From: a virus
Lineage: Duplodnaviria; Heunggongvirae; Uroviricota; Caudoviricetes
Reading direction: 5' to 3' (one strand)
Length of the DNA stretch: 6,817 nt
IMG/VR virus record: IMGVR_UViG_3300009622_000013
Part shown: one piece after another, positions 1 through 6,817 of the stretch
Position numbering within the stretch: position 1 is the first letter of the stretch
Layout of the letters: each line of letters begins with the position of its first letter
Made by a program: the position numbers and the translations under genes
Notes under the pieces: generated by a model
Seen by the model: only the letters and a program-made list of their open reading frames with translations
Databases searched by the model: none
What the model was told of the DNA's origin: nothing

Positions 1-197
1 TATTTGTAGTATCTCTTTTTGGAATATCTCAATTTTATGTGTCATTTTTCGGGGAAGGATATAGAGATTTAAGCAAGCATTTATTTGGAATGTATTTTTC
101 GTTCGACCTTTGCTTATACATAACAGTCGTTTTTTTAATTTATAAAATAATTCAAAGAAATCAAGACAATAGCGATGTAAAGCACTAAGTTTAAATT

Positions 198-217
198 GCG
201 CGCCAATCATGGCGCGC
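198..217 (-). terminator. Candidate stem-loop just 3' of the minus-strand ORF stop; weak intrinsic terminator
   Basis: Perfect 8-bp GC-rich stem GCGCGCCA (198-205) / TGGCGCGC (210-217) with loop ATCA. On the minus strand it is followed by AATTTAAACTT, only a moderate U-tract. It lies 5 nt beyond the stop at 223-225. Confidence 0.3.
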
Positions 218-222
218 ACAAG

Positions 223-504
223 CTATAATACCAACCTAATTTCTCCTCCTCTTAGAGTGACTATATCTCCTGATAGAATTGCGGTATTGACTATCAAATG
301 CCCTGATTCGTTGTTTATTGTAATATCTCCTCTATCTGCAGACGATAACTTAAATGCATCATTGCCCACAACAAACCCCCTCCAGAACCAAGTGCTGATA
401 TTATCATCAACAGTGATAGATACATATACTAACTGATTATCGTTATAAGTGATTCCTGTCTTATACTTAACATAAGGACTTCCACTTTGATTCTCGATAG
501 ACAC
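223..504 (-). CDS. C-terminal fragment of an unassigned protein, possibly tail-fibre-like; no convincing start, likely a remnant
   Basis: The 93-aa minus-strand ORF reads like a real beta-rich protein (..GITYNDNQLVYVSITVDDN..GDITINNESGHLIVNTAILSGDIVTLRGGEI), whereas the overlapping plus-strand ORF 209..436 is low-complexity. It begins with a non-ATG codon at the junction with the tfaS fragment and is followed by the hairpin at 198-217. Confidence 0.3.
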   Translation of the reverse strand: MSIENQSGSPYVKYKTGITYNDNQLVYVSITVDDNISTWFWRGFVVGNDAFKLSSADRGDITINNESGHLIVNTAILSGDIVTLRGGEIRLVL

Positions 505-528
505 ATAACATCCAGGGGTTATGTTTGT

Positions 529-831
529 ATGCGTCCCGCGACTATCGCCCCATTAACGCCATACGATAAATGGGATGGTGAGAAATGGGTGACGGATACC
601 GAGGCACAGCATAGCGTCGCAGTAGATGCAGCAGAAGCACAGCGCCAGTCGCTGATTGATACTGCAATGGCTTCCATTAGTCTGATTCAACTGAAATTAC
701 AGGCTGGGCGGAAGCTGATGCAGGCAGAGACCTCCCGACTTAACACTGTGCTGGATTACATTGACGCGGTGACGGCAACAGATACCAGCACCGCGCCGGA
801 TGTCATCTGGCCTGAACTGCCGGAGGAGTAG
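529..831 (+). pseudogene. tfaS: Tail fibre assembly protein, N-terminally truncated fragment
   Basis: The C-terminal portion (..EAQHSVAVDAAEAQRQSLIDTAMASISLIQ..LDYIDAVTATDTSTAPDVIWPELPEE) matches the conserved C-terminal domain pattern of phage Tfa proteins, and is paralogous to the C-terminus of the convergent yfdK product. First ATG is at 529; the track ORF from 487 starts at TTG. The ~80 N-terminal residues of a full Tfa are missing. Confidence 0.6.
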
Positions 832-1243
832 GCCATTCAATATCTGGCGCACTGGAAGTATCGACCAGCTCCAGTGCGTCCAGATAATCCAGCCACAAAT
901 TATATTGCGCCAGTTCCTCACCTTTCAGACGACCAATAGCCGCTTTACCAGCCCATTGTTTACTGTTCATATAATCGTTGGCCTGATTAATCAATTGCTG
1001 CTTTTTCAGTTCGGCTGCAGCAATCTGTTCCTCATGTGTTGGTGGTGGAATTTCAGACCATGCAGGAAAACCATTTTCTCCAGCGATACGGATTTTTCCT
1101 TTCGGCGGTAATCCGGAAAACTCAATATACACTTGCTCATCAACTTCAACAGCATCATCTGGCCATGAGCCAGCTTGCGTGTAATCCTCTTTCATCTCCA
1201 AGGGATAGAAAGAGTTTGTAGTCGCGGAATATATGTAATTCAT
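803..1243 (-). CDS. yfdK: Phage tail fibre assembly protein (Tfa family), 146 aa
   Basis: ATG at 1241-1243 is preceded by GGAGTG on the minus strand. The protein ends ..LWLDYLDALELVDTSSAPDIEWPTPPAVQAR, the Tfa C-terminal signature. It sits immediately downstream of the tail-fibre fragment, the usual stf-tfa order. Length and sequence agree with my recollection of K-12 YfdK. Confidence 0.8.
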   Translation of the reverse strand: MNYIYSATTNSFYPLEMKEDYTQAGSWPDDAVEVDEQVYIEFSGLPPKGKIRIAGENGFPAWSEIPPPTHEEQIAAAELKKQQLINQANDYMNSKQWAGKAAIGRLKGEELAQYNLWLDYLDALELVDTSSAPDIEWPTPPAVQAR

Positions 1244-1269
1244 TTTTCACTCCATAAAGTTAAAAGAAA

Positions 1270-1992
1270 TTAACACCCTAATGCGAAAAATGAAGCACCG
1301 ATACCGGGTACGCCTGCTCTGGAAATAAATTTCACCGGGTCCTGGTTATAACCGGCACAAGCTATATAGCCAACATTTGCACTGCCGGGAGTGTAATCCT
1401 GAGTCGCAAATACCCGCAGACATCTATTCGGAAATGCAATCGGAAAATAGGTTACTGTGTCCTGAGACGTCAGCGGAACATCAATTGGCCCCCATTGAAT
1501 AATTAAACCGGATGGCAATTTTTGATATCCAGGAACTGAAGCAGAAAGCATAAAACTACCCATATCAGGTATCTGATTCGCCCCTGTCCCTACATTTCTT
1601 TTAGCCGCTTCTCCCAAACCAAGGTTTTCGAGAGCCTTTTGCACCGTGCCGTCCAATTTGATATCGCCAAACGGATTCTTGCGGCTTAACAGCAGCGCAC
1701 GAAGCGCGGTAAGCAGCTGGTCATGCCGCCCCTTCTCCAGGCTGGCACCGGAGGCCTCCACAACGCTGCAAAGCTCCTCCTGCAACATGTCAAAGTAGTC
1801 ATCATCCAGATCGGTGGCAGGCGTGCCGGTCTGGGGGTTACCACGGGTACGGGGGATTACCAAAGGCAGCACCTTTAAGCTCCGCAAGACGTTCTGACCA
1901 GTCATGCGCCAGCGCGTTGTCTTCCGCAGTGTAATACGCGGCACATTTGGCGTTATCACCATCAGTAAACAGATCCAGAACAAACGGGCCAA
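1270..1992 (-). pseudogene. yfdL: Tail fibre protein C-terminal fragment; the real coding part is probably about 1270-1840, with the upstream ORF portion overlapping yfdM out of frame
   Basis: The 240-aa ORF has a C-terminal ~190 aa that is tail-fibre-like (..[64 protein letters not shown]..). Its N-terminal ~50 codons lie over the yfdM 3' end in another frame and look non-native. It is followed 27 nt later by the tfa gene yfdK. Confidence 0.55.
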
Positions 1993-2113
1993 ACAGGGTG
2001 TTAATTCCCCAGAAAATGTTGTCCGGCGTGCGCCACTGATCGCCCACTTCCTTCAGTTCATGGGCTGGTTTGTTCCGCAGCTCCACCAGCGCCTGGCAAT
2101 ATTTATTACTCAT
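1838..2113 (-). CDS. yfdM: Truncated phage Dam-family DNA N6-adenine methyltransferase, N-terminal fragment ending just after the NPPY motif
   Basis: The product [91 protein letters not shown] carries the W-R-T-P .. NPPY pattern of phage Dam methylases but stops 2 residues after NPPY. The ATG at 2111-2113 overlaps the yfdN stop (TAATG). The track ORF starts 11 codons upstream at a non-ATG codon. Confidence 0.6.
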
Positions 2114-2607
2114 TAAGCCCCCACGTAATTCCCTGAGAGATACCACTCTTCACCTGATGCAGCCCGCTTACTGCTTTTCCGTAAACACCGTTCACGACGC
2201 GCCAGAAAATTGTTTCGTTCTGGCTGGGAGTGGCTTTCACGGAATGCCGCCATCCACACCGTTGCAGCACGACGGTATAAGCCCCTGGACTCCAGTTCTT
2301 CCGCCTGGCGGGTCAGGCACAAAATCACCCGCGGGTCGTTAGTGCCGACATAGAAATTGCGCACAGGTCTGGTTTCACGAACTGGTTGTGGTTCCGGATC
2401 CTGCGCTCTCTCAGTCAGGCGCGGGAAATGTCTGTGTGTATCTCCTTCACAACGGTGAGCCACACGCCCACTCTGACGTAACTTGCTTGCTGACTGCAGA
2501 ACGCGCTGCCGTGAGTAACCTGCAAAAGCATCCGCAATGTCTCCGGAAGTACAGCCCGGATGGGCTTCAATGAATTTCTGAACGTCATTCAAAAGACTCA
2601 TGCTCAC
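2113..2607 (-). CDS. yfdN: Prophage regulatory protein, PerC-like C-terminal region (recollection)
   Basis: A 164-aa ORF starting at GTG 2605-2607, which overlaps the yfdO stop as GTGA; an in-frame ATG lies 2 codons downstream. The C-terminal region (LCLTRQAEELESRGLYRRAATVWMAAFRESHSQPERNNFLARRERCLRKSS) resembles PerC-type activators. It is arranged like an operon with yfdO and yfdM. Confidence 0.7.
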   Translation of the reverse strand: MSMSLLNDVQKFIEAHPGCTSGDIADAFAGYSRQRVLQSASKLRQSGRVAHRCEGDTHRHFPRLTERAQDPEPQPVRETRPVRNFYVGTNDPRVILCLTRQAEELESRGLYRRAATVWMAAFRESHSQPERNNFLARRERCLRKSSKRAASGEEWYLSGNYVGA

Positions 2608-2972
2608 CCCCTGAATCCTGCCGGGATCTGGCTGTAGTCCACATTGTCGTAACTGGCTTTGAAGTACGGGTCTTCGCGTTTTTCTGTGTACGTGCTGACG
2701 GACGGCGATAAGCGCAGGGAAAGCTCATCCCATTTTTCCCGCAGCTTCGACGGGCTGAGCACGTTACGGCACCAGAACGGATCGCGGCTGACGCGGCTGT
2801 ACATCTCGCAGATTTGTTTGTGAGTACGACCATCCTGCACACACATCAGGCGAATTTCGTTTGCCCAGGCTGTCCAGTTCGGTTCTTTGGGACGAACCAC
2901 CTCGCCGTCACATTCGGCGGCCTGCTCGTACAGGGCGATGATTTTTTTCCAGAGCCACTGTGCGCAGGTCAA
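2604..2972 (-). CDS. yfdO: Phage replication protein O-like remnant, 122 aa (defective replication initiator)
   Basis: The 122-aa ORF MTCAQWLWKKIIALYEQAAECDGEVVRPKEPNWTAWANEIRLMCVQDGRTHKQICEMY.. matches my recollection of K-12 YfdO, annotated as a defective O-like protein. The iteron array lies directly upstream. Confidence 0.65.
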   Translation of the reverse strand: MTCAQWLWKKIIALYEQAAECDGEVVRPKEPNWTAWANEIRLMCVQDGRTHKQICEMYSRVSRDPFWCRNVLSPSKLREKWDELSLRLSPSVSTYTEKREDPYFKASYDNVDYSQIPAGFRG

Positions 2973-3329
2973 ATCATCCTGCGTTCCCCACTGGCGCTTT
3001 TTAGGGCTGAATACAACCGCATCAGGATGGCGAGTTAAAAAATCCTGTTCATCCGTCTGCGTGTCCGGTTGCGAAGCGTCCGGACGAGAAGGTTTTTTAT
3101 CTGACGGATCATGTTTTGATTTTACTGACGGATCCCCGCCAGATTCTGACGGGTGAAAACCCGATTTTTTGCCAGATTTCGACGCATCAAATTTTGACGG
3201 GTCAGATTTTGATGCGTCAGATTTTGACGGGTCAGAGTCTGACAGTTGAGAAAATGCCGCTGCCTGAAGCTTCGCAACGTTAAGCTGATAAACATTCGAC
3301 GCATTGCGGTTATGATGAGGAGCAGCAAA
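2973..3329. promoter_or_regulatory. Divergent intergenic control region between yfdO (minus) and yfdP (plus); contains the iteron array and presumably divergent promoters
   Basis: A 357-bp non-coding gap between divergently oriented genes. GAGGAG sits 8 nt before the yfdP ATG at 3330. Exact -35/-10 elements could not be assigned with confidence by eye. Confidence 0.4.
3171..3245. repeat. Five tandem 15-bp iterons (consensus GTCAGATTTTGAYGS) with degenerate copies upstream from about 3100; putative ori or operator repeats
   Basis: Units read directly in register: 3171 GCCAGATTTCGACGC, 3186 ATCAAATTTTGACGG, 3201 GTCAGATTTTGATGC, 3216 GTCAGATTTTGACGG, 3231 GTCAGAGTCTGACAG. The last has internal dyad symmetry (GTCAGA-G-TCTGAC). 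Further TGACGG-containing copies occur at 3102, 3126 and 3147. Confidence 0.6.
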
Positions 3330-3692
3330 ATGGCTAGCGAACGCAGTACTGATGTGCAGGCATTTATCGGGGAGCTGGACGGCGGCGTATTTGAAACCAA
3401 AATCGGCGCAGTTCTCAGTGAAGTCGCTTCCGGTGTGATGAACACGAAAACCAAAGGTAAGGTCTCACTCAACCTGGAAATCGAACCATTTGATGAGAAC
3501 CGTCTGAAAATCAAACACAAACTCTCATATGTTCGCCCGACTAACCGTGGGAAAATTTCCGAAGAAGACACCACCGAAACGCCGATGTATGTCAATCGCG
3601 GTGGTCGCCTGACTATTCTGCAGGAAGACCAGGGACAATTACTGACTCTTGCCGGTGAGCCTGACGGAAAACTCCGCGCAGCAGGTCATTAA
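3330..3692 (+). CDS. yfdP: Prophage protein of unknown function, 120 aa
   Basis: ATG at 3330 is preceded by GAGGAG. The product MASERSTDVQAFIGELDGGVFETKIGAVLSEV.. is protein-like. The track ORF from 3246 adds 28 low-complexity residues upstream with no ribosome binding site. Sequence matches my recollection of K-12 YfdP. Confidence 0.7.
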   Translation: MASERSTDVQAFIGELDGGVFETKIGAVLSEVASGVMNTKTKGKVSLNLEIEPFDENRLKIKHKLSYVRPTNRGKISEEDTTETPMYVNRGGRLTILQEDQGQLLTLAGEPDGKLRAAGH

Positions 3693-3757
3693 TATCATTC
3701 TTAATTAACTAATTATTTATCTCATCACTGAATATCTTAATATAGTGAGGACTTATT

Positions 3758-4582
3758 ATGTCTCAGAACTTAGACGCAACCGCAATTAATCAAATCCATG
3801 CCCTTATTTCTGCTCAGGGTGTTAATGAAATTATCAGTAAGATTGGTGCCGATGCTGTGGCATTGCCTGAGAATTTCCGCATTCATGATCTGGAAAAATT
3901 TAATTTAAATCGCTTCCGTTTCCGTGGTGCGCTTTCCACTGCCAGCATCGATGACTTTACCCGTTATTCTAAAGATCTTGCAGATGAAGGCACCCGCTGC
4001 TTTATCGATGCTGATAATATGCGTGCCGTCAGTGTGCTTAACCTGGGTACTATTGATGAACCAGGTCACGCAGATAACACCGCCACTCTCAAACTGAAAA
4101 AGACAGCACCGTTCTCTGCCCTGTTGTCTGTTAACGGCGAGCGTAACTCCCAGAAATCACTGGCAGAATGGATTGAAGACTGGGCCGACTACCTTGTGGG
4201 CTTTGATGCTAATGGTGACGCCATTCAGGCAACAAAAGCGGCTGCGGCAATCCGTAAAATCACGATTGAAGCAAACCAGACCGCTGATTTTGAAGATAAT
4301 GACTTCAGCGGCAAACGCTCCCTGATGGAATCTGTCGAAGCGAAGACCAAAGACATTATGCCAGTGGCATTTGAATTTAAATGCGTTCCGTTTGAAGGTC
4401 TGAAAGAACGTCCGTTTAAATTACGCCTCAGCATTATCACTGGCGATCGTCCTGTACTGGTTCTGCGCATTATTCAGCTGGAAGCGGTGCAGGAAGATAT
4501 GGCTAACGAATTTCGTGATCTGCTTGTTGAGAAATTCAAAGACAGCAAAGTAGAAACCTTTATTGGTACTTTCACCGCCTGA
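3758..4582 (+). CDS. yfdQ: Prophage protein YfdQ, 274 aa, uncharacterised (DUF-type)
   Basis: A 274-aa ORF with ATG at 3758 preceded by GTGAGGA. The product [53 protein letters not shown].. is recognised from memory as K-12 YfdQ. It is followed by a strong hairpin. Confidence 0.85.
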
Positions 4583-4594
4583 TTTCATTACTGC

Positions 4595-4620
4595 AAATGC
4601 CCCTGCGGGGGCATTTATGG
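4595..4620 (+). terminator. Candidate intrinsic terminator or attenuator downstream of yfdQ
   Basis: Perfect 9-bp stem AAATGCCCC (4595-4603) / GGGGCATTT (4608-4616) with loop TGCG, followed by ATGG. The 3' arm ends in UUU. It may act in both directions. Confidence 0.45.
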
Positions 4621-4709
4621 AAACGTAATTAACTCAATAATCACCGGATGGTGAGGGCTTCCTTTTACCCAAACTCAGCGCGGTGCAGCGCATATACGTG
4701 GAGAACAAA

Positions 4710-5246
4710 ATGTCATTTATTAAAACTTTTTCCGGGAAGCATTTTTATTATGACAAGATAAATAAAGACGACATCGTGATTAACGATATCGCGGTTTCCC
4801 TTTCAAATATCTGCCGCTTTGCCGGTCATCTTTCTCACTTCTACAGTGTCGCCCAACATGCGGTGCTTTGCAGCCAGCTGGTGCCGCAGGAATTTGCTTT
4901 TGAAGCATTAATGCATGATGCAACAGAAGCGTATTGCCAGGACATCCCCGCACCACTGAAACGCCTTCTTCCTGACTATAAACGGATGGAAGAAAAAATA
5001 GATGCAGTAATCCGTGAGAAATACGGGTTACCTCCTGTTATGAGCACGCCAGTGAAATATGCCGATCTCATTATGCTGGCAACCGAACGCCGTGATCTCG
5101 GGCTTGATGATGGCTCTTTCTGGCCTGTACTGGAAGGCATCCCGGCAACAGAGATGTTCAACGTGATTCCACTGGCACCGGGTCATGCCTACGGGATGTT
5201 TATGGAACGTTTTAACGATTTATCGGAGTTACGCAAATGCGCATGA
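4710..5246 (+). CDS. yfdR: HD-domain phosphohydrolase (5'-deoxynucleotidase family), 178 aa
   Basis: ATG at 4710 (MSFIKTF..) is preceded by GGAGA; the track ORF from 4683 starts at a non-ATG codon without a ribosome binding site. The HD-domain signature is present: H40, H43, then H69-D70 (codons 4914-4919, LMHDATEAY). The stop overlaps the yfdS start region. Confidence 0.8.
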   Translation: MSFIKTFSGKHFYYDKINKDDIVINDIAVSLSNICRFAGHLSHFYSVAQHAVLCSQLVPQEFAFEALMHDATEAYCQDIPAPLKRLLPDYKRMEEKIDAVIREKYGLPPVMSTPVKYADLIMLATERRDLGLDDGSFWPVLEGIPATEMFNVIPLAPGHAYGMFMERFNDLSELRKCA

Positions 5247-5599
5247 ATGTTTTCGAAATGGAAGGGTTTCTTCGCGGGAAATGTGTACCGCGAGATCTGA
5301 AAGTGAACGAAACAAATGCTGAGTACCTGGTACGTAAATTCGACGCGCTTGAAGCTAAATGTGCGGCACTGGAAAACAAAATAATACCAGTGTCAGCTGA
5401 ACTGCCACCAGCAAATGAAAGTGTTCTGTTATTTGATGCTAACGGAGAAGGCTGGCTGATTGGCTGGCGTTCTCTCTGGTACACCTGGGGACAAAAAGAA
5501 ACCGGAGAATGGCAGTGGACATTTCAGGTTGGGGACCTTGAAAACGTCAATATCACTCACTGGGCAGTAATGCCAAAAGCACCGGAGGCTGGAGCATAA
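5237..5599 (+). CDS. yfdS: Prophage protein of unknown function, 120 aa
   Basis: ATG at 5237 is preceded by GGAG and overlaps the yfdR 3' end (ATGCGCATGA); its TAA stop overlaps the yfdT ATG (TAATG at 5597-5601). Sequence MRMNVFEMEGFLRGKCVPRDLK.. matches my recollection of K-12 YfdS. Confidence 0.75.
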   Translation: MRMNVFEMEGFLRGKCVPRDLKVNETNAEYLVRKFDALEAKCAALENKIIPVSAELPPANESVLLFDANGEGWLIGWRSLWYTWGQKETGEWQWTFQVGDLENVNITHWAVMPKAPEAGA

Positions 5600-5904
5600 T
5601 GACCACATTTACCAATAAAGAACTGATTAAAGAAATCAAAGAACGAATCAGCAGCCTAGAGGTTCGAGACGATATTGAGCGCCGTGCTTATGAAATCGCA
5701 CTCGTATCTCTGGAAGTAGAGCCAGATGAACGCGAAGCCTATGAATTATTCATGGAAAAGCGTTTCGGTGACTTAGTAGATCGTCGGAGAGCAAAAAACG
5801 GCGATAACGAATACATGGCATGGGATATGACTCTCGGTTGGATCATCTGGCAGCAACGAGCTGGTATCCATTTTTCAACAATGTCACAACAAGAGGTGAA
5901 ATAA
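5599..5904 (+). CDS. yfdT: Prophage protein of unknown function, 101 aa
   Basis: ATG at 5599 is translationally coupled to yfdS. The product MTTFTNKELIKEIKERISSLEVRDDIERRAYEIALVSLEVEPDEREAYELFMEKRF.. is charged and helical. It is the last gene of the yfdPQRST block. Confidence 0.75.
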   Translation: MTTFTNKELIKEIKERISSLEVRDDIERRAYEIALVSLEVEPDEREAYELFMEKRFGDLVDRRRAKNGDNEYMAWDMTLGWIIWQQRAGIHFSTMSQQEVK

Positions 5905-5916
5905 TAGAGCCATACA

Positions 5917-5945
5917 GCCTCACACTCGATGAGGCCTGTCAGTTT
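5917..5945 (+). terminator. Weak candidate terminator hairpin downstream of yfdT
   Basis: Stem GCCTCA (5917-5922) / TGAGGC (5930-5935) with loop CACTCGA, followed by CTGTCAGTTTCTT. Short stem and interrupted U-tract. Confidence 0.25.
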
Positions 5946-6000
5946 CTTAAAATATCCTGATCTACCATCGCCGTCATAGAGCGTATTTTTATTACCTGAT

Positions 6001-6016
6001 TTGCAGGTTCGATTCC
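6001..6016 (+). other. Orphan tRNA T-arm-like fragment (TTGCAGGTTCGATTCC), not part of an intact tRNA
   Basis: Contains the canonical tRNA T-loop motif GGTTCGATTCC preceded by GCAGG. The complementary 3' T-stem strand and the acceptor stem are absent, and no cloverleaf can be drawn. By recollection it matches the T-arm of tRNA-Arg argW. Confidence 0.45.
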
Positions 6017-6035
6017 CTATTCGGAGATAGCACTC

Positions 6036-6236
6036 ATGCAACACGAACTACAGCCTGATTCACTGGTTGATTTGAAATTCATCATGGCTGATACTGGCTT
6101 TGGTAAAACCTTCATCTATGACCGGATTAAGTCAGGCGACCTGCCAAAAGCCAAAGTTATCCACGGGCGAGCAAGATGGTTATATCGTGACCATTGTGAA
6201 TTCAAAAATAAGCTCTTAAGCCGCGCCAATGGGTAA
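6036..6236 (+). CDS. torI: Excisionase-like recombination directionality factor / Tor response-regulator inhibitor, 66 aa
   Basis: ATG at 6036 is preceded by GGAG. The product MQHELQPDSLVDLKFIMADTGFGKTFIYDRIKSGDLPKAKVIHGRARWLYRDHCEFKNKLLSRANG is recognised from memory as TorI (AlpA/Xis-like winged helix). It lies next to the att core, as expected for a recombination directionality factor. Confidence 0.85.
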   Translation: MQHELQPDSLVDLKFIMADTGFGKTFIYDRIKSGDLPKAKVIHGRARWLYRDHCEFKNKLLSRANG

Positions 6237-6309
6237 AATAGCGGGTAAAATATTTCTCACATCTAAAAAACACCATTCCAATCAATCCCCTGCTGCTTCA
6301 AGTAGATGT

Positions 6310-6324
6310 CTGCAGGGGACACCA
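6310..6324 (+). other. Putative attR core: 15-nt copy of a tRNA 3' end (CTGCAGGGGACACCA) marking the prophage/host boundary
   Basis: The sequence ends in the acceptor-stem/ACCA-type terminus of a tRNA and by recollection equals the 3' end of argW tRNA-Arg. No upstream tRNA body is present, so it is a partial duplicate as expected at the att site distal to the integrase. It is flanked by torI (prophage) and dsdC (host). Confidence 0.6.
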
Positions 6325-6419
6325 TCCTTGTGTTTATCCCTAAAACCACATAAAAACCGTAAATTAAATTCGAACTAGCAGGCCGAATAAGGCACACCAG
6401 GAACTCGTGGTTTTATTCA

Positions 6420-6755
6420 TTATGAAGTGGTTTTTACCTGTTCTCTTAGCCAGATAATAAACGCTTCAATTTTTGGCCACTGCCTGCCCGGTAATGTGGT
6501 GATGTAATAATGCTGATGGCATTTCACCGTCATATCGCCAAACGGCGCGACGAGCTCACCACTGGCAAGCCTTTTTTGTACCAGGCGTTTTCTTCCCATC
6601 GCCACCCCAATATGATTCATCGCGGCAATAACAGCTAAATCAGAACGATCAAAGCCAATTCCAGAAGATGTCGGCAAATTAACCGCATAATGTTGCGCCC
6701 AACTATGCCATTCATCCGTACCGGAGTCGTTGCTCCATGCCTGTCTGTCATGGAG
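6420..6755 (-). CDS. dsdC: LysR-family transcriptional regulator, C-terminal part only (D-serine deaminase activator); upstream part replaced by a fold-back palindrome
   Basis: The minus-strand ORF ends ..HDRQAWSNDSGTDEWHSWAQHYAVNLPTSSGIGFDRSDLAVIAAMNHIGVAMGRKRLVQKRLASGELVAPFGDMTVKCHQHYYITTLPGRQWPKIEAFIIWLREQVKTTS, a LysR effector-domain C-terminus recognised as DsdC. The first 17 residues of the track ORF (MPFIRTGVVAPCLSVME) are encoded by the reverse-complement arm of the palindrome and are not native. Confidence 0.7.
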   Translation of the reverse strand, partial: LHDRQAWSNDSGTDEWHSWAQHYAVNLPTSSGIGFDRSDLAVIAAMNHIGVAMGRKRLVQKRLASGELVAPFGDMTVKCHQHYYITTLPGRQWPKIEAFIIWLREQVKTTS

Positions 6756-6817
6756 CTCCATGACAGACAGGCATGGAGCAACGACTCCGGTACGGATGAA
6801 TGGCATAGTTGGGCGCA
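6694..6817. repeat. Perfect 124-bp palindrome (62-bp arms, no spacer, centre between 6755 and 6756) running to the window end
   Basis: Bases 6756-6817 are the exact reverse complement of 6694-6755, checked block by block. The centre is GGAGCTCC. Confidence 0.95.

Follow-up and report, generated by a model that had tools for sequence, protein, structure and literature searches.

What do two convergent, overlapping tail-fibre assembly (tfa) genes and an adjoining fibre gene in a cryptic prophage descend from? The question is raised by a stretch of 6,817 nucleotides (the window), the whole of which is the E. coli K-12 prophage CPS-53/KplE1 (100% identity). A sequence-only reading had seen here a decayed invertible tail-fibre segment with neither an invertase nor an obvious crossover site. 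Our analysis supports the frozen invertible segment, and the layout and the missing invertase with it; a crossover site is nevertheless present. This stretch of CPS-53 is a locked leftover of a tail-fibre inversion switch, which has kept one of its two recombination sites and lost its recombinase. Positions 541-1849 very probably represent a 1.3-kb remnant of an e14-type (Pin) invertible segment, frozen by two joints (Table 1). Homology was judged at the DNA level, which we took as decisive. The source phage was a temperate myovirus whose early genes were lambdoid and whose tail genes were Mu-like.

Table 1. Features of the frozen tail-fibre segment and its flanks (window coordinates;. = no strand).
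Feature	Position	Strand	Description
P22-type tailspike gene remnant	223-545	-	last ~106 codons; left scar, outside the switch
Left illegitimate joint	541-561	.	tailspike 3' end joined to tfaS codon 105
tfaS'	541-831	+	codons 105-200 of a 200-aa TfaE-type assembly protein; silent arm
tfa 3'-end overlap	803-831	.	29 bp, two convergent genes
yfdK	803-1243	-	intact 146-aa Tfa chaperone, expressed arm; full-length Caudo_TAP
yfdL variable part (Sv)	1270-1620	-	gp53-like C-terminal fibre tip, within the former invertible segment
Orphan Pin-type crossover site	1609-1634	.	TTCTCCCAAACC-AA-GGTTTTCGAGAG, inside yfdL
Fibre constant-part remnant (Sc)	1635-1849	-	codons 22 to ~93 of a 213-aa e14-type fibre
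Right illegitimate joint	1847-1849	.	3-bp overlap GTA; fibre codon 21/22 joined to the dam 5' part (yfdM')
yfdM'	1847-2113	-	5' fragment of a phage N6-adenine methyltransferase gene; scar flank

The convergence of tfaS and yfdK and the length of their overlap are as first described: the open reading frame at 487-831 on the plus strand (stop at 829-831) meets that at 803-1243 on the minus strand (stop at 803-805). Both products match the Caudo_TAP profile (Pfam PF02413; E = 7e-25 for tfaS and 2e-39 for yfdK) above its gathering score, YfdK with 135 bits over its full length and TfaS with 88 bits over profile positions 34-131 only. Because the match is limited to these positions, TfaS is a truncated Caudo_TAP protein; tfaS carries a pseudogene annotation. 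The C-terminal 72 residues of the two proteins are 38% identical (E = 7e-13), in agreement with the proposal that they are paralogous. Upstream of yfdK on the same strand, again as proposed, lies yfdL (1270-1905/1992), a gp53-like fibre gene. Its variable part matches Pfam Gp53-like_C (E = 5e-18), and its constant part is 94% identical to stfP of K-12 e14 and 93-98% identical to other stfP-type genes. The constant part is joined in frame to the variable part, and therefore the switch is locked in the expressed orientation of the yfdL/yfdK arm. CPS-53 thus retains one complete cassette, the yfdL variable part with yfdK; 96 codons are left of the second tfa gene and the silent tip is absent, which bears out the view that one arm lacks its fibre gene. 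The limits first given for the relic, 487 and 1992, are artefacts of the calling of open reading frames: homology to Tfa begins at 541 and that to the fibre stops at 1849, while 487-540 is part of the tailspike remnant, which runs on the opposite strand, and 1850-1992 is part of yfdM.

The working form of the switch is found in the e14-like prophage ETEC1717 (L008), to which window 541-1849 aligns colinearly and without gaps over 1309 bp, with 98.3% identity. ETEC1717 shares with CPS-53 the crossover site, yfdK (one nucleotide difference) and the fibre tip (zero differences in the yfdL variable part), with a single difference in 652-1636, and it has the 29-bp tfa overlap. Unlike CPS-53, it also has the silent tip (Collar domain) and thus two fibre-tip/tfa arms, a full 200-aa tfa gene, a second site (the inverted 26-bp sites are at L008 4388-4413 and 6288-6313) and pinE, an invertase gene with Pfam Resolvase and HTH_7 domains, of a kind also present in the relative L002. 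Window position 541 corresponds to L008 5220, within the tfa gene at 4908-5510; gone with tfaS codons 1-104 are the silent fibre tip, the second site and pin. When the ETEC1717 segment was flipped in silico, the resulting isomer was found with 100% identity in ETEC1730, where the prophage is the same but its segment is inverted and an IS66 interrupts pin, and with 97.7% identity in UID2309220027, where pinE is intact. During an O157 outbreak, 1739 bp around a yfdK homologue became inverted (PMC8190617), and the e14 P segment is inverted by PinE, PinQ and PinR at TTGGTTTGGGAGAAGG / CCTTCTCCCAAACCAA (PMC12529663). The ungapped match, the natural flipped isomer and the published inversions point to descent from an inverting segment. 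The idea that related intact prophages might have a non-invertible arrangement, which would have spoken against such descent, is not borne out, since ETEC1717 carries the same DNA as an invertible segment, and the inversion isomers that had been suggested as a test do occur in related strains. In the intact relatives, the serine invertase PinE exchanges DNA at the two inverted 26-bp sites, one within the fibre gene at the constant/variable boundary and the other adjoining pin, and inversion links the constant 5' part of the fibre gene with either of two tips, each with a Tfa chaperone of its own downstream.

The convergent genes could also be a chance meeting of unrelated tail-fibre fragments, as cryptic prophages are mosaics and the two Tfa proteins are only 38% identical across the residues compared. 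This explanation is almost certainly wrong: the 29-bp overlap is annotated identically in four other loci (L002, L003, tfaP/tfaE of K-12 e14 and L008), a crossover site lies where expected, and we count the colinear, ungapped match of 1309 bp to an intact switch as its refutation.

The likeness to the Mu G segment, the P1 C segment and e14 that had been noted holds for descent from a switch, and the family can be narrowed to the e14 P segment and Pin. Like e14 (stfP-tfaP / tfaE-stfE-pinE), CPS-53 has a constant part, site, tip, tfa and convergent tfa, and tfaS is ~88% identical to tfaE. It differs from e14 in having no pin, second site or silent tip, and in its expressed tip, which is gp53-like, unlike the StfP tip. 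The resident e14 of K-12 was rejected as the donor of the segment, its identity being only 88-94% as against 98.3% for ETEC1717. The Mu G/Gin, P1 C/Cin, p15B Min and Salmonella Hin systems are of the same kind, with a serine invertase and 26-bp sites with a 2-bp core, and they have alternative tips, each with its own assembly proteins, in convergent orientation; in all but Hin, the site lies inside the fibre reading frame. These systems are lineages distinct from the CPS-53 relic, and their sequences were compared for the form of the site only, the remaining likeness being general knowledge.

Contrary to the statement that the window holds no crossover site, we found a 26-bp site of the Hin/Gin/Pin type inside yfdL, identical to the sites of intact switches. 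It consists of two 12-bp imperfect inverted half-sites flanking a 2-bp core (AA/TT), lies in frame at the constant/variable boundary, where it encodes ...LENLGLGE..., and occurs once in the window, where chance alone would give 0. All 26 positions are identical to the reverse complement of the pix site in stfP of K-12 e14, and likewise to the fibre-side sites of L003, L008, ET565 and L015 (the latter two are described below); the published e14 repeat is matched at 15 of its 16 positions. Homology blocks in other genomes break at this site, and differences from ETEC1717 number 1 in 985 bp (652-1636) but 12 in the 213 bp immediately beyond it. A strict degenerate pattern matched nothing, since the outer half-site has AG rather than AA at its end; a half-site scan took its place. 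Neither a search allowing up to 3 mismatches nor a scan with the half-site model revealed a second site in the window; CPS-53 therefore has one site only, whereas its relatives have two, inverted and flanking the segment.

The invertase is also gone, as first reported: a tblastn search of the window and of the 12.4-kb CPS-53 locus, with PinE as query, gave nothing better than E = 1 for a serine recombinase, and the annotation of the whole 12.4-kb locus holds none. In the known systems, the 5' end of the invertase gene contains the recombinational enhancer, which invertases of the Hin family require in cis, along with a supercoiled synapse of a specific kind. DNA equivalent to L008 3779-5219, that is, pin and its surroundings, is absent from CPS-53, where only 541-1849 aligns, and hence there is no enhancer region. 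Because it has one site and neither enhancer nor invertase in cis, the CPS-53 locus should be unable to invert, judging from the established mechanism of Hin, Gin, Cin and Pin. K-12 has neither the invertase nor the second site, nor the fibre tip of the silent arm, and its switch is therefore frozen. Consistent with this, positions 1222-2021 are contiguous in 360 K-12-type records, a single arrangement among assemblies, in which rare sub-populations would not show, and no inversions were reported in CPS-53 (PMC12529663).

The orphan site should still bind the Pin proteins of K-12. Might PinE, PinQ or PinR, then, still recombine it in trans with the e14 pix sites and so produce large chromosomal inversions or novel fibre chimeras? 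The identical e14 site in stfP is inverted relative to the orphan and ~1.26 Mb away, and the three K-12 Pin enzymes use that very sequence (PMC12529663). If the site were live, a quarter of the chromosome would be inverted by rare recombination with e14 stfP, the predicted product being a stfP-yfdL fibre gene, intact and in frame, with yfdK behind it. However, a junction search found the predicted e14 x CPS-53 junction in no K-12-type complete genome; all 21 full-length matches to the junction were natural e14-like prophages with at most 98.2% identity, and the site region is contiguous in the 360 records mentioned above. The requirement for a cis enhancer and a supercoiled synapse also strongly disfavours sites 1.26 Mb apart, and we regard such activity as highly improbable.

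The freezing of the switch can be traced to the left joint, where the silent tfa gene meets a tailspike remnant. This remnant includes the annotated small gene yodE (223-369; Pfam YodE, E = 5e-36) and is 98.6% identical to HKUOPY1, where it forms the 3' end of a 655-aa open reading frame with Head_binding, Beta_helix and YodE domains (Pfam). The full architecture of a P22-type tailspike is present in the HKUOPY1 homologue but only the C-terminal (YodE) domain in the window, and 223-545 is therefore best read as a tailspike fragment rather than a gene. The tailspike 3' end adjoins gtrABS, next to gtrS, and the joint itself shows ~21 bp of imperfect microhomology (ACTA-TCGCCCCATTAACGCCA versus ACTAGTCGCACCATTAACGGCA). 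An identical left joint is present in the prophage ET565 and in the IMG/VR contig L015 (UViG_2856045503_000004), both of which carry the same site beyond it, together with a complete set of tail, head and lysis genes. The ET565-type prophage (at thrW) resembles CPS-53 in this scar, in identical YfdI and YodE, in its single site and in the absence of pin (no Pin homologue was found), and its early genes are those of K-12 (dam, yfdN, yfdO, yfdR/S/T; 96-98%). It differs in having a full late region, a full-length fibre gene and another expressed tfa/tip allele; its integrase and attachment site are also different (tRNA-Thr, thrW, versus argW in K-12). As ET565 and L015 have in their expressed arm (window-equivalent 866-1550) an allele other than that of K-12, at least one further cassette exchange must be assumed. 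From its annotation, ET565 would be an apparently complete, viable phage. Since the left joint is common to this apparently complete myovirus prophage, the switch was probably already frozen in the whole phage before the K-12 deletion described below.

Our first model was a different one, in which an e14-like switch fragment entered a fibre-less P22-like cryptic prophage by two illegitimate recombinations and had never been in the CPS-53 ancestor. Its basis was HKUOPY1, where a P22-like prophage with the full tailspike occupies argW, together with the microhomology joints at both ends of the fragment; the position of the tailspike 3' end next to gtrS and the intS/torI module, common to the P22-like phages HK620, Sf6 and CUS-3 (PMC2951348), agree with it as well. 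It was dropped because of the left scar in ET565 and L015, where a complete myovirus late region follows the identical joint, and because ET565 shares the K-12 early genes, so that one 25.4-kb deletion explains K-12. Moreover, a P22-like argW prophage with the K-12 right junction (dam joined to fibre) alone is absent, and we now consider this import very improbable. It is rather the tailspike-gtr(-int) module that is likely to be foreign.

The freezing is thus a single illegitimate joint to the P22-type tailspike/gtr module and not slow decay in a dead prophage, which corrects the earlier description of the switch as frozen and decayed. The right joint corresponds to a 25.4-kb deletion relative to ET565, which removes the nin region and the lysis, head, tail and baseplate genes, and among the records searched it is present only in K-12-type E. 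coli. Four of 364 records with the yodE region at 99% identity or more are without the K-12 right junction; ET565 was inspected among them. On the far side of the joint, yfdM' covers positions 3-69 of the 169 in the Pfam Dam profile and is 98% identical to full-length dam in ESY002 and ET565. ESY002, the closest yfdM-side relative first examined, is a lambda-like siphovirus and was uninformative on the fibre region. The start of yfdL in RefSeq (ATG, 1903-1905) falls in the yfdM' region, out of frame with yfdM.

The origin of CPS-53 may accordingly be reconstructed from a serotype-converting myovirus. In a first step, shown by the shared junctions, an illegitimate, microhomology-mediated joint linked the silent tfa gene to the 3' end of a P22-type tailspike with its gtrABS serotype-conversion module, cutting the switch, with loss of the silent tip, the second site, pin and the enhancer within the invertase gene; the fibre would have been locked ON in an otherwise complete phage. 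In a second step, shown by comparison, the 25.4-kb deletion in the K-12 lineage joined fibre codon 22 to dam with a 3-bp overlap. Parsimony across three genomes favours this order and direction of events. An inversion switch can thus freeze through module exchange in a complete-looking phage, besides decaying in a dead prophage.

The relic is an ordinary remnant of an already known system and leaves knowledge of the switch mechanism unchanged. It does explain together, as one unit, tfaS, yfdK and yfdL, long annotated in K-12 as pseudogenes or orphan genes. No description of the relic or its orphan site was found in the literature searched, the coverage of which did not extend to Mehta, Casjens and Krishnaswamy (2004, BMC Microbiol 4:4). 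The orphan site gives K-12 a third copy of the exact PinE/PinQ/PinR target, which is useful in genome engineering and in studies of Pin-mediated phage defence. That the relic is not inert, being either a live Pin target or a locked-ON YfdL/YfdK pair co-opted by the host, seems quite unlikely. YfdL is a paralogue of StfP, and StfP/StfE chimeras block T2 adsorption (PMC12529663); deletion of yfdK lowers peroxide resistance (PMC3105296).

By sequence comparison, window 1-6756 is identical to E. coli K-12, and the window spans the right two-thirds of the cryptic prophage CPS-53/KplE1. Its genes run from the end of yfdI (gtrS) through yodE, the pseudogene tfaS, yfdK, yfdL, yfdM' (a dam fragment) and yfdN onward to torI, and then dsdC. 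As the sequence-only reading had described, tfaS and yfdK converge and overlap. They are also paralogous, both being Caudo_TAP proteins, with 38% identity (E = 7e-13) over the C-terminal 72 residues in a protein alignment. On the minus strand, yfdK is preceded by yfdL, whose assignment as a tail-fibre gene is borne out by a gp53-like fibre-tip domain at its end (Pfam). Annotation and a PinE similarity search found no serine recombinase gene in the window or the rest of CPS-53, in agreement with the claimed absence of an invertase.

Coordinates of the switch relic and of neighbouring or related features
Feature	Record	Coordinates	Strand	Description
yodE	window	223-369 (within 223-545)		K-12 "toxic protein YodE", 48 aa, Pfam PF23504
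tfaS ORF	window	487-831	+	Caudo_TAP, profile positions 34-131 only
Match to ETEC1717	window	541-1849		1309 bp, ungapped, 98.3%
Segment shared with ETEC1717	window	652-1636		1 difference/985 bp
tfaS/yfdK shared stretch	window	803-831		29 bp
yfdK ORF	window	803-1243	-	Caudo_TAP, full length
Allelic tfa + tip cassette	window	866-1550
Same cassette, ET565	L016	20404-21108
Fibre tip	window	1270-1620
Crossover site	window	1609-1634		TTCTCCCAAACC-AA-GGTTTTCGAGAG
Constant part from codon 22	window	1635-1849
~15-bp repeats	window	3138-3251		six copies, 15-bp spacing
Terminal palindrome	window	6694-6817		perfect, 62 + 62 nt
IS66-broken invertase region, ETEC1730	L009	1-3100
SMODS/SLATT region, ESY002	L011	13200-16100
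Mobile-element region, ET565	L016	1-16700

The sites of Hin, Gin, Cin and Pin take the form of imperfect inverted half-sites around a 2-bp core. The sequence-only reading had seen no crossover site in the window; this was wrong, as yfdL carries in frame a 26-bp site with two imperfect 12-bp inverted half-sites and an AA core, which encodes ...LENLGLGE.... The site occurs once in the window (0 expected by chance) and agrees at 26/26 positions with the reverse complement of the stfP site of e14.

Among 3,800 E. coli genomes, homology to the window breaks at four points, including 541, about 1608-1627 and 1847-1849. The best match is the e14-like prophage of strain ETEC1717, which holds a complete switch: pinE (Resolvase + HTH_7), the pin-side site (TTTTCATAAACG-TT-GGTTTGGGAGAA), a silent fibre tip with a Collar domain, a tfa of 200 aa, a convergent tfa of 146 aa overlapping it by 29 bp, a fibre gene of 213 aa containing the window's site, and ymfQ with baseplate genes. 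A related intact prophage thus holds the same DNA, colinear, as an invertible segment, and the proposed e14-like layout stands. This arrangement of parts, with two inverted sites and a recombinase, recurs in a P2-like prophage, an O157 prophage and e14 of K-12. The near-identity of window and ETEC1717 within the segment gives way to 12 differences in 213 bp directly outside the site, which identifies the site as an old boundary of exchange.

We inverted the ETEC1717 segment in silico, taking both core dinucleotides as the points of exchange. The resulting isomer exists naturally and aligns as one colinear match, in ETEC1730 (the same prophage, 100% identity, with pin split by IS66) and in UID2309220027 (97.7%, pinE intact). 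Published inversions agree with these natural isomers: the e14 P segment is inverted by PinE, PinQ and PinR alike at TTGGTTTGGGAGAAGG / CCTTCTCCCAAACCAA (PMC12529663), and a 1739-bp stretch around a yfdK homologue became inverted during one O157 outbreak (PMC8190617). In ETEC1730, whose fibre segment lies opposite to that of its sibling ETEC1717, the IS66 insertion in the adjoining invertase gene is a second, independent route to freezing this switch.

K-12 keeps the fibre-side site, the constant part, the fibre tip, yfdK as the chaperone of the yfdL tip, and the last 96 of the 200 codons of the other arm's tfa (tfaS). It lacks the silent tip, tfaS codons 1-104, the second site and pin, so that one arm is incomplete, as had been noted. 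Since the constant part and tip of yfdL are fused in frame, the switch is fixed with the yfdL tip in the expressed orientation.

The DNA left of 541 is the 3' end of a P22-type tailspike gene, its last ~106 codons, read on the minus strand. Strain HKUOPY1 has this stretch at 98.6% identity as the end of a 655-aa ORF that combines head-binding, beta-helix and YodE domains, beside the same gtrABS genes at argW. The YodE domain there covers residues 608-655, and YodE of K-12 is no more than the final 48 codons of such a tailspike gene. The left joint sits where the two sides share ~21 bp of imperfect microhomology. When the joint sequence was searched for by exact match, it turned up unchanged in an IMG/VR contig (L015) and in the complete ET565 genome, with gtrABS and tfaS' 99% identical to K-12. 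Past the joint, both carry tfa, a full-length fibre gene in which the same site is again the only one, and ymfQ, followed by baseplate, sheath, tube, head, terminase and lysis genes; ET565 continues with Q, RusA, full dam, yfdN, yfdO, immunity genes, yfdR/S/T, xis and int at tRNA-Thr. No Pin homologue or second site was found in ET565. A first reading, in which a P22-like prophage had acquired the fibre fragment from elsewhere, was dropped because ET565 and L015 show the same joint with full late genes. Instead, a tailspike-3'/gtr module would have joined into the silent tfa and truncated the switch, and the shared joint followed by a full late gene set suggests that this happened in a phage genome still looking complete. 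Directly left of gtr, ET565 has a P4-like satellite (integrase, AlpA, Ash, Icd-like, TOPRIM/DUF927 primase) and remnants of P22-like ejection-protein genes, and this region is therefore a tandem array of mobile elements.

Relative to ET565, K-12 lacks 25.4 kb between fibre codon 22 and approximately dam codon 90, the ends of this deletion overlapping by 3 bp, and differs in its integration module and expressed-arm allele. The dam::fibre joint was seen only in K-12-type records. The left scar is 99% alike in K-12 and ET565/L015, whereas the expressed tfa + tip cassette is a different allele, with boundaries in the conserved 3' end of tfa and close to the crossover site; cassette exchange thus went on after truncation. 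ESY002, a lambda-like relative, carries a SMODS/SLATT (CBASS-like) gene pair and a frameshifted fragment of a recombinase directly past a truncated tfa, where its side-tail-fibre genes end. Here too a pin region may have degraded, with a defence cassette now in its place.

We conclude that the CPS-53 locus belongs, in degenerate form, to the e14 P-segment/Pin family; Mu G/Gin and P1 C/Cin are systems of the same kind. The features of descent (identical site, colinear homology, conserved 29-bp tfa overlap) are present; those of a working switch (invertase, second site, second cassette, observed isomers) are absent. These results support the earlier interpretation of a frozen, decayed switch, with three changes: one site survives, the family is of the Pin/e14 type, and the freezing event is a module-exchange scar found also in apparently intact phages, only the later deletion being confined to K-12-type records. 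The underlying biology is already well understood; no account of the relic or orphan site was found in the literature read, which did not take in the most relevant older work, Mehta et al. (2004).

In known systems the recombinational enhancer lies inside the invertase gene, and here it would have been lost along with pin. With one site, no enhancer and no invertase, local inversion in CPS-53 should be impossible by the established mechanism. The three Pin enzymes of K-12 act on the exact sequence of the window's site, and the same study found no inversions in CPS-53 and does not mention the orphan site (PMC12529663). The CPS-53 and stfP sites, ~1.26 Mb apart, have opposite orientations, and recombination between them is predicted to yield an in-frame stfP-yfdL gene. 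A search for this junction gave 21 full-length matches, all natural e14-like prophages at <=98.2% identity, and 0 K-12 records; the site region is unbroken in 360 K-12-type records.

At the extreme end of the window, 6757-6817 is the reverse complement of 6695-6756, whereas the K-12 reference continues with dsdC sequence; the palindrome looks artefactual and not biological, a fold-back that came with the source record or with construction of the window. The ~15-bp repeats (CAGATTTTGACGGGT-like), which have internal dyad symmetry, sit in the 5' half of the truncated yfdO (replication-protein/HTH) gene and could be candidate origin iterons of a lambdoid replication module.
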